Of a stretch of 35,488 bases of DNA, positions 14,576 to 17,367 are shown piece by piece. Location: NCBI GenBank assembly GCA_011364975.1, contig RDOE01000034.1:1-35488 (forward strand), given 5' to 3'. A model generated the notes under the pieces. The model did no database searches. It saw only the letters and a program-made list of their open reading frames with translations, and was not told where the DNA came from. Origin of the DNA: Promethearchaeota archaeon (GTDB lineage: Archaea; Asgardarchaeota; Lokiarchaeia; Sigyniarchaeales; SOKP01). Numbering within the stretch: position 1 is the stretch's first letter; every line of letters starts with the position of its first letter. Position numbers and translations under genes: made by a program.

Positions 14576-15526
14576 TCAGTTTGATCTGATTTCTCTAACT
14601 TTACCTTCTAGATAGAAATTTATCCATGTAGGAAAATTCTCTCCTTCTAGCAACACCAGCACCTTAATAGATTCAAAAATAGTGTCTATTAATAATTGAT
14701 TTTCAATCTCTTGAAGTTGTTTCATAGATTGGAACCATACACATAATAGTTTCATATTAGGTAAATTGCTAAACTCCCATAAGAAGACAAAATTAGCCCC
14801 AAATTTTTTTCGCAAATTTTCTGTTAAGTTTAAATCTACGGGGTTTAATAGAGGATCTAGGTTTAATATAATAAAAGATAAGGTTTCTCCAGTTTTATCG
14901 GGATACCAATCAATTGTGAATATTATAAGATTTTTTTCAATTAACATATCTAAATGTCTTCTGATTGTTTTAACATTTAACCCTAATTCACCCGCAATAT
15001 CTACAACTGTCTTACGTGAGTTATCTTTTAATGAATTGATAATTAAATAATCTAAACTATCAACTTTAGTCCTTTCAATGTCGGTTAGAGTGGTTGACTG
15101 TTCTTGTTTTTCTAAACCAACAATAAGATCATCAATTTCTCCGATACTGCGAACAAAAGAAACTAAAGAGTCTAATTCATTCAAATTTCGTATATAGGCA
15201 TGGATGAAAAAGATATTACCACTTGCTCGCGCTACATTGTATATAAATTCATTTTCTCCTAGTTTACTAATCAAATCTTTAACGTTTGAACTCTTAGGTG
15301 TTCCAAACATAATCACATTTACAACATTAGAAAAAAAGTAAATCGATAATCGAGTTTTAAAATTTTGAATTACACCTAACTCTACTAAAGATTTTACTCT
15401 CTTATGGATGGAATTAACACTCATACTAAACATCTTAGATAGATCCTTAAATGAGATTCTTGAATTGCCCATCAAGATCATAGAAAGAGTGAAATCTATA
15501 TCATCCATAGTTAATTCAAATTTCAA
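14576..15526 (-). CDS. Tandem (double) Lrp/AsnC-family transcriptional regulator
   Basis: MDDIDF...NSRISFKDLSK..SVNSIHKRVKSL and DSLDYLIINSLKDNSRKTVVDIAGELGLNVKTIRRHL wHTH units, each followed by a RAM-like domain. Confidence 0.87.
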   Translation of the reverse strand: MKFELTMDDIDFTLSMILMGNSRISFKDLSKMFSMSVNSIHKRVKSLVELGVIQNFKTRLSIYFFSNVVNVIMFGTPKSSNVKDLISKLGENEFIYNVARASGNIFFIHAYIRNLNELDSLVSFVRSIGEIDDLIVGLEKQEQSTTLTDIERTKVDSLDYLIINSLKDNSRKTVVDIAGELGLNVKTIRRHLDMLIEKNLIIFTIDWYPDKTGETLSFIILNLDPLLNPVDLNLTENLRKKFGANFVFLWEFSNLPNMKLLCVWFQSMKQLQEIENQLLIDTIFESIKVLVLLEGENFPTWINFYLEGKVREIRSN

Positions 15527-16976: not shown

Positions 16977-17094
16977 TTTATAAGAATTTTTTAGAATTTA
17001 TTGATTTAAAGCGATAAAGAATAAATTTTTTAAGGTTTGTACAATTCAAAGATCTATAATTTAGATAATATAACTTAAATTAAGGCTGATTTTC

Positions 17095-17367
17095 ATTCCA
17101 AAAAAAAGGAGAAGCGGTGGAAAAAGCGGTTCAAGTAAGGGACAATATAGAACTGTTCAATGCACCAACTGTGGACGATTTGTTCCACGAAGCAAAGCAA
17201 AAGCTGTAACAAGAAGAGTATCTTTAGTTGATGGGAGAATGTTTGCGGAACTAAAAAAAGCAGGTACTATTATTCAAACTCCAAGCAAAACGGCTTATTA
17301 TTGCATTAGCTGTGCTGTGCATAGCCATCAAATATCCCAGCGTGATAAAAACCTTAGAAAGGAATAA
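17095..17367 (+). CDS. rps26e: 30S/40S ribosomal protein eS26 (missed by the ORF track; non-canonical ATT start)
   Basis: Manual translation: (I/M)PKKRRSGGKSGSSKGQYRTVQCTNCGRFVPRSKAKAVTRRVSLVDGRMFAELKKAGTIIQTPSKTAYYCISCAVHSHQISQRDKNLRKE*, 90 aa. It has the eS26 Zn ligands CxxC...YCISCAVH and the PKKR N-terminus. Confidence 0.95.
   Translation: MPKKRRSGGKSGSSKGQYRTVQCTNCGRFVPRSKAKAVTRRVSLVDGRMFAELKKAGTIIQTPSKTAYYCISCAVHSHQISQRDKNLRKE

Follow-up and report, generated by a model that had tools for sequence, protein, structure and literature searches.

The available parts of the literature describe several systems that bear on the locus reported here. The bacterial gene infC, which encodes IF3, starts at AUU and is translationally autoregulated (PMC4705826, citing Butler et al. 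1987). The same source describes bacterial IF3 and eukaryotic eIF1 as autoregulating through a start that each disfavours, and reports that aIF1 makes archaeal 30S complexes reject AUU in vitro (PMC4705826). The ribosomal protein eS26 of Saccharolobus solfataricus lies in the mRNA exit channel, where it wraps the 3′ end of 16S rRNA; it is reported to be loosely bound and incompatible with a Shine-Dalgarno (SD) duplex, and excess eS26 abolishes the toeprint, and initiation, on an SD-leadered mRNA (PMC11698992). In Flavobacterium johnsoniae, bS21 (encoded by rpsU) is described as sequestering the anti-SD tail and as being autoregulated via the SD of its own mRNA (PMC9976891).

The window, by which we mean the whole stretch of 35,488 nucleotides that was analysed (a Promethearchaeota archaeon, assembly GCA_011364975.1, contig RDOE01000034.1, positions 1 to 35,488), contains a functional single-copy eS26 gene (Table 1). 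The protein shows every mark of the family, namely a profile match over the whole domain, the zinc ribbon together with PKKR, and a single copy under purifying selection. Residues 1-89 align to profile positions 1-93 of 108 in Pfam Ribosomal_S26e with an E value of 1.1e-16 and a score of 61.7 bits, where the cut-off is 27, and this is the only match in the whole assembly (G000; 3.74 Mb, 200 contigs, 99% complete). The zinc-binding cysteines C23, C26, C70 and C73 are invariant in an alignment of 12 diverse orthologues from four families, the window's protein included, as are K3, K4 and R5 of the basic N terminus, (M)PKKR. Across 927 pairs among 59 ATT-type genes, median dN/dS is 0.063; the median dS of 1.74 shows saturation at synonymous sites. 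The gene stands alone, 118 nt after a same-strand gene for a CDP-alcohol phosphatidyltransferase, and a convergent gene for a TPR protein ends 2 nt past its stop. If the AT-rich stretch upstream is used as a TATA region, the leader would be only ~10-12 nt long; columns −41 to −33 upstream of the start are only weakly conserved among 56 relatives, and a search of RNA sequencing runs found none that contains the stretch. RNA structure around the start (17075-17144) has a minimum free energy of −10.7 kcal/mol and a z-score of −1.05, with 28 of 200 shuffles folding equally well, which leaves a structured element at this site unsupported.

Table 1. Features of the eS26 locus in the window, and three further genes or gene pairs with an ATT start reading elsewhere in the same assembly (G000).
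Feature	Position	Strand	Remarks
AT-rich stretch (ctataatttag / gataatataac)	17053..17074	+	Possible archaeal TATA region (predicted)
In-frame TAA closing the frame upstream of eS26	17071..17073	+	Read from the sequence
Conserved eS26 leader, AGGCTGATTTTC	17083..17094	+	Core GCTGA 17085-17089; T-rich spacer 17090-17094
eS26 coding sequence	17095..17367	+	90 codons plus TAA stop (17365-67); Pfam PF01283
ATT start codon	17095..17097	+	Aligned to Met of ATG-type orthologues; presumably decoded as Met by initiator tRNA
First in-frame canonical start, ATG, codon 49	17239..17241	+	Downstream of the first Cys pair; opens a 42-aa ORF, 17239-17367
aIF1 (SUI1) gene	G000:C38:7704-8033	-	Locus L388; first canonical start only at codon 110 of 113
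Proteasome alpha subunit gene	G000:C21:1745-2458	-	Locus L387; reads AAGGAGGctga TGG AAG ATT
Gtr1/RagA-type small GTPase genes (eukaryote-like family)	G000:C16:5155-6060; G000:C180:6220-7170	-	Loci L376, L377

The eS26 frame reads TAA (17071-73) CTT AAA TTA AGG CTG ATT TTC, then ATT (17095-97) CCA AAA AAA AGG and on to the terminal TAA (17365-67). Among the seven sense codons between the upstream TAA and the start of (M)PKKR, none is ATG, GTG or TTG. A near-cognate codon therefore occupies the Met position of the orthologues in a frame with no usable canonical start, and AUH initiation of this kind is included in NCBI table 11. An earlier note on this DNA had described exactly this arrangement, an intact 90-codon eS26 frame lacking ATG, GTG and TTG, with an SD-like AGGCTGA 5 nt before an ATT serving as start, and our analysis agrees with it: the motif is present at 17083-17089 and the frame is as written. 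Contigs from other assemblies bear out the base calls. Logan contigs from three runs in three studies (X12, X19, X9) cover 17089-17109, and in all of them 17095-17097 is ATT, not ATG. The X9 contig is near-identical to the window and may be its source. The X19 contig has 7 other differences in 601 bases and so represents a strain variant that retains ATT. Because contigs from three studies keep the codon, it is neither a sequencing error nor a private mutation.

The same codon recurs among relatives. Our genus-level sample comprised 42 genomes, 35 of which contain eS26, in 37 copies; one copy is cut by a contig end, leaving 36 that were assessable. At the position aligned to Met, 23 of these have ATT, 9 have ATG, 3 have TTG and 1 has CTG, so the proposed tabulation of the codon before PKKR, which could have returned ATG throughout, did not. 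Among the best 80 loci in a species-representative public collection (69-88% identical), 79 were assessable, and they carry ATT (59), ATG (12), TTG (3), ATC (2), ATA (2) and CTG (1); the 49 that are not identical to earlier loci carry ATT (38), ATG (6), ATC (2), ATA (2) and TTG (1). Where the start position holds ATT, ATA or ATC, it is ATT in 62 of 66 copies (ATA 2, ATC 2), and the internal Ile codons of ATT-type genes are ATT 154, ATA 87 and ATC 35, a contrast that is descriptive and carries no statistical test because the rows are related. The Pro codon that follows the start varies (CCA 31, CCT 17, CCG 7, CCC 6). On a gene tree built without the start codon, ATT falls in the majority of the basal lineages of the genus, with at least seven changes among ATT, ATG, TTG and CTG; the start codon is thus labile and ATG is tolerated for eS26. 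A sister pair in another family, L002 with ATT and L003 with ATG, points to an independent change. Together, these observations confirm that eS26 translation starts at ATT 17095, with Met presumably inserted at the AUU. Two genomes have two eS26 copies each, one with ATG and one with TTG (L023/L032 in G005, L041/L042 in G049), and since their contamination estimates are 8% and 6%, respectively, these may be mixed bins rather than paralogues.

To place the codon in the phylum, we used an even draw of 151 genomes, 143 of which have eS26; of the 135 loci retrieved outside the genus, 134 were assessable (L315 was not anchorable). In the 121 copies from outside the window's family (f1), the start is ATG in 49, TTG in 55 and GTG in 17, and no copy has ATT, ATA or ATC. 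Within f1, genus g12 has ATT three times and ATA once, g16 has ATT once and TTG once, and g13, g14 and g15 are canonical. Taken with L002, these counts make the ATT start of eS26 a trait of family f1 plus at least one isolated case elsewhere. Family f14 has TTG in all 18 of its eS26 copies. It may be that eS26 is generally kept on weak starts, as 72 of the 121 copies outside f1 have TTG or GTG; this share has a per-genome baseline in G000 only, where 30% of 1410 confident starts are non-ATG.

The sequence ahead of the start is conserved as well. GCTGA lies 2-8 nt upstream in all 26 assessable weak-start copies of the genus, mostly as GCTGATTTT, with one further copy cut 8 nt upstream, and in only 4 of the 9 ATG copies. 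Among 101 unique sequences, 56 of the 62 ATT-type copies have GCTGA within 16 nt of the start, with a spacing of 5 nt in 51. At positions −5 to −2, 48-56 of 56 copies have T, and the leader, including the T-run after GCTGA, is more conserved than third codon positions, although the set was picked by the GCTGA motif and only its flanking columns count. Read against the 16S tail GGAUCACCUCCU, the leader is an imperfect SD, made up of AGG, a bulged C and UGAU. Related families have GGTGA at the homologous place. In seven genomes of the genus, the 16S rRNA has an ordinary end, ...GGATCACCTCCT, which excludes an altered anti-SD in the genus; GCUGAU thus differs from the usual SD by a G-to-C mismatch. 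The 16S of G000 itself is partial and its own anti-SD is not readable; the assembly's sole 16S piece (G000:C78:11-790, minus strand; model positions 4-828) is cut at a contig end.

The pairing that this leader can offer is modest in most copies. The window's duplex has an energy of −7.0 kcal/mol (bulged), stronger than 88% of the 1410 confident starts. The 62 ATT leaders have a median of −4.4 kcal/mol (strongest −11.2), where the genome median is −3.4 and random 18-mers give −3.1, and most relatives carry AGCUGAU at ~−4.4 kcal/mol, near the genome background. Before the confident G000 starts, GCTGA was observed 6 times vs. 11.6 expected, so there is no enrichment. We therefore rejected GCTGA as a general ribosome-binding variant; a genome scan also turned up no further ATT gene with a convincing GCTGA lead, the proteasome case being preceded by GGAGG. 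Given its conservation, its lack of enrichment elsewhere and its modest pairing, the motif is peculiar to eS26, subject to selection and no better than a mediocre SD.

We then asked how far ATT starts extend in the genome. A coding-potential screen returned 2474 ORFs with at least 25 codons before a canonical start, was too unspecific, and was replaced by an SD-association test in G000. This test takes frames that look coding, considers the codons that precede the first canonical start by 10 codons or more, and scores an SD word 3-10 nt upstream of each. Such a word precedes 38 of 452 ATT, 26 of 336 ATA and 246 of 6529 codons of all kinds (AAT, TTT and TTA: 1.6-3.0%), making ATT and ATA the codons most often SD-preceded in G000. 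Thirteen candidates were scanned against Pfam, and in all 13 the domain begins upstream of the first canonical start. They include two Gtr1/RagA-type GTPases, a ParA/MinD-type ATPase, a succinyl-CoA-synthetase-like ATP-grasp protein, GcvT, DJ-1/PfpI, CinA, a proteasome alpha subunit and aIF1. Both GTPases keep their P-loop (residues 8-15) only with an ATT (or adjacent ATC/ATA) start, their first canonical starts lying 31 and 16 codons downstream. The first ATG of the proteasome subunit falls within the conserved N-terminal signature, and Pfam Proteasome_A_N would cover residues 9-31 if the gene is ATT-started; a second proteasome alpha subunit (C131) begins with a normal ATG. No non-canonical start was found among the TFB-like genes examined in G000, whose starts are canonical and lie close to the beginning of the frame.

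The aIF1 gene merits separate mention. In G000, its start region reads GGTTGTGA, AAT AAG AGT, then ATT AAA GAC, and the same order of GGTTGTGA, three codons and ATT AAA GA is found in 15 of 17 assessable genus loci (survey of L156-L179, with the matches G007:C27, G005:C22 and G002:C84 left out). The remaining two loci are second copies that have diverged, and another locus is cut. The aIF1 gene retains ATT even in genomes whose eS26 has ATG or TTG. At two loci of another genus (L167, L174), aIF1 apparently starts at ATA. Two control ribosomal proteins behave differently: eL37 has no ATT among 30 genus copies (ATG 24, GTG 6), and eL44 has ATG in 21, TTG in 3 and ATT in 2 of 26 assessable copies, with 4 of its 30 loci motif-less and uncounted. 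The two ATT copies of eL44 are L371 (G016) and L372 (G057), where the 30 in-frame codons upstream include no canonical start; G057 has both an ATT-started eL44 and a CTG-started eS26. From the SD association, the 13 candidates and the controls, it follows that the lineage tolerates ATT and ATA starts and that, of the genes examined here, eS26 and aIF1 are the two that keep ATT deeply. Judging from the genomes, AUU and AUA serve as starts for dozens of ordinary genes in family f1 of these Loki-type Asgard archaea (Promethearchaeota). The suggestion in the earlier note of a feedback device gains no support as one specific to eS26, given that ATT and ATA starts are genome-wide, that aIF1 is also ATT-started, and that the eS26 start has changed at least seven times.

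The reading that we favour, with a probability of roughly 0.6, is that eS26 is AUU-started behind a leader of moderate pairing, GCUGAUUUU, and that this weak start keeps its synthesis low and dependent on aIF1. The AUU codon itself would hold synthesis down, and eS26 output would then depend on how strictly near-cognate starts are rejected, that is, on aIF1 activity, and probably also on a free anti-SD tail. If eS26 acts as it does in Saccharolobus, where the protein wraps the anti-SD tail and excludes the SD duplex, a surplus of it would reduce initiation on its own mRNA, which is SD-assisted and AUU-started.

Compared with infC, eS26 shares a conserved AUU on a gene of the initiation machinery and an SD-like element, and its output should likewise rise as near-cognate discrimination falls. 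However, IF3 itself discriminates, and its true counterpart in the genus is aIF1, which is also ATT-started; moreover, ATT and ATA starts occur here in dozens of genes rather than in one or two. Conservation of AUU among orthologues, as for infC, is found in the genus and the nearest loci, yet it gives way to 0 of 121 copies outside the family and at least seven switches of start codon. Arguably, aIF1 is the closer analogue of infC and the more interesting gene of the two. The comparison with eukaryotic eIF1 is similar, as aIF1 of the genus fits the logic of a proofreading factor made from a start that it disfavours; in the account given in PMC4705826, however, eIF1 relies on a poor Kozak context around AUG and on scanning, whereas the aIF1 of this genus has a non-AUG start behind a short, prokaryote-type leader.

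The likeness to bS21 lies in the protein, a small, loosely held constituent of the platform that occludes the 16S 3′ tail, as eS26 does in Saccharolobus (PMC9976891, PMC11698992). If the mRNA of such a protein carries an SD element, ribosomes without the protein would translate that mRNA better, by analogy with bS21. Still, the SD of rpsU is exceptionally strong (below −13 kcal/mol; PMC9976891), compared to −7.0 for the window's eS26 leader and a median of −4.4 for its relatives, and the weak element of the eS26 mRNA is instead the start codon. Because the leader lacks an exceptionally strong SD, we do not class eS26 as a bS21-type system. The Saccharolobus work, in which eS26 is treated as a quasi-initiation factor, concerns the same protein family and the same exit-channel site at the rRNA 3′ end, a position that would make eS26 dosage a plausible regulator of SD-dependent initiation. 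As far as the available part of that study goes, it deals with the action of the protein and not with the start of its gene, and in a crenarchaeon rather than an Asgard archaeon (PMC11698992).

A serious rival to this reading is that initiation in the lineage is simply lax, with ATT, ATA and ATC as ordinary, somewhat weak starts to which eS26 drifted without regulatory meaning. Much of the data would agree with a weak start that is plainly tolerated: the genome-wide excess of ATT and ATA behind SD motifs, the unrelated genes in which such a start is needed (13 of 13), the ATT starts in genes unlinked to initiation, the sporadic ATT starts of eL44 (2 of 26 copies), and the repeated start-codon changes in the genus, where ATG copies look fully functional. 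However, drift does not readily account for an ATT that has been kept despite a dS of 1.74, without scattering over ATA and ATC in the way that internal Ile codons do, or for a gene-specific leader that is invariant in every assessable weak-start copy of the genus. In addition, ATT is retained with much greater consistency in eS26 and aIF1 than in the control ribosomal proteins, and the 72 of 121 copies with TTG or GTG outside the family, to be read beside the one baseline of 30% in G000, are not what pure tolerance would lead one to expect. We regard drift as less likely than the favoured reading.

Initiation further upstream is improbable. Translation from the CTG at 17086 or the first ATT at 17089 would give M-I-F-I-PKKR or M-F-I-PKKR; both codons are in frame in the window, TAG CTG ATT TTT ATT is in frame in many relatives, and the NCBI proteins P0012 and P0030 begin MIFIPKK. 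Yet five of the 23 ATT copies of the genus (L013, L018, L021, L039 and L043) have the upstream CTG (and ATT) in another frame. In the first four of these, the motif is shifted so that its TGA becomes an in-frame stop two codons before the ATT, and in L045 (G057) a CTG at the Met position directly follows an in-frame TAA, behind a GCTGA leader. The Met-aligned codon is thus the sole candidate common to all copies. The CTG at 17086 also lies inside the SD-like motif, with nothing upstream of it to pair.

We give still less credence to a leader that acts through mimicry, in which GCUGAU would be a candidate eS26 binding site resembling the 16S segment GGCUGGAU just before the anti-SD and would permit direct repression, as in classic ribosomal-protein operons. 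The leader, (A/G)GCUGAU, does resemble the 16S 3′ end GCGGCUGGAUCACCUCCU of the seven genus genomes, its C is invariant even though it weakens anti-SD pairing, and eS26 of Saccharolobus wraps the single-stranded 16S 3′ end (PMC11698992). However, the likeness, which may be fortuitous, amounts to 6-7 nt with a deletion, the eS26-held nucleotides given in the available part of the study (G1486-C1493; PMC11698992) are not mappable onto the motif, and the fold z-score of −1.05 indicates no significant local structure. Finally, a sequencing or assembly error, private mutation or decaying pseudogene is hardly conceivable, as its one point is the missing canonical start and it is refuted by the three studies' contigs, the conservation of ATT among genus copies (23 of 36) and nearest loci (59 of 79), and a dN/dS of 0.063 in the sole eS26, four cysteines intact, of a 99% complete genome.

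Returning to the favoured reading of a weak, aIF1-dependent start, it could be extended to a bolder form that we consider doubtful, in which eS26 and aIF1 form a paired homeostat of start-site selection in the family, both AUU-started behind invariant, imperfect leaders (GCUGAUUUU for eS26; GGUUGUGA plus 9 nt for aIF1). If this were true, aIF1 would set the acceptance of AUU, and eS26 on the anti-SD tail would set the docking of SD-assisted mRNAs, its own included. The dozens of other AUU and AUA genes would then be a regulon, and the leader of eS26 would serve as a dedicated sensor and would not be an SD that has degraded.

Asgard archaea have eukaryote-type initiation factors together with prokaryote-type mRNAs. 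The first canonical start of eS26 in the window is the ATG at 17239, so a finder limited to ATG, GTG and TTG can call only the 42-aa fragment. Gene finders of this type lose or truncate eS26, aIF1, the proteasome subunit, the RagA-like GTPases and dozens more in these genomes, and the missed ATT and ATA starts affect counts of eukaryote-like proteins and marker-based estimates of completeness. The gene had been called unannotated in this genome, and indeed its four forms (the 42-aa ORF and the 90-, 92- and 93-aa forms as written in the DNA, not M-initial) are absent from a collection of 15 billion proteins, in which the best homologue is 91% identical. The wider claim, that such genes would be missed or truncated in Asgard annotations, stands for this genome and for several JGI, ENA and Logan calls, among them several 62-aa truncations and one 121-aa extension. 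In NCBI records, many relatives are named S26e, some of them called from the ATT, although inconsistently and with starts at four different places. Some of these records are 90 aa long and begin MPKKR where the DNA has ATT (P0005 and P0010, presumed to be L065 and L071), and others start at the upstream CTG, ATT or ATA (P0012, P0003, P0011, P0059).

The literature that we searched yielded no paper on an ATT-started eS26 or aIF1. The nearest precedent is the Asgard tubulin AtubA, for which a "rare ATT start codon" has been proposed (PMC13394414). As here, the deposited protein of an Asgard gene was too short, and taking an upstream ATT, plausibly spaced from a ribosome-binding site, as the start restored it; the available part of that paper gives this as a methods remark on a single gene, with no survey, ribosomal or initiation genes, or conservation analysis (PMC13394414). 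Elsewhere in the window, a TTG-called ORF of 316 aa on the minus strand (14576-15526) has two winged-helix/AsnC-type HTH domains (residues 6-46 and 155-200), the arrangement of a duplicated Lrp/AsnC-like regulator.
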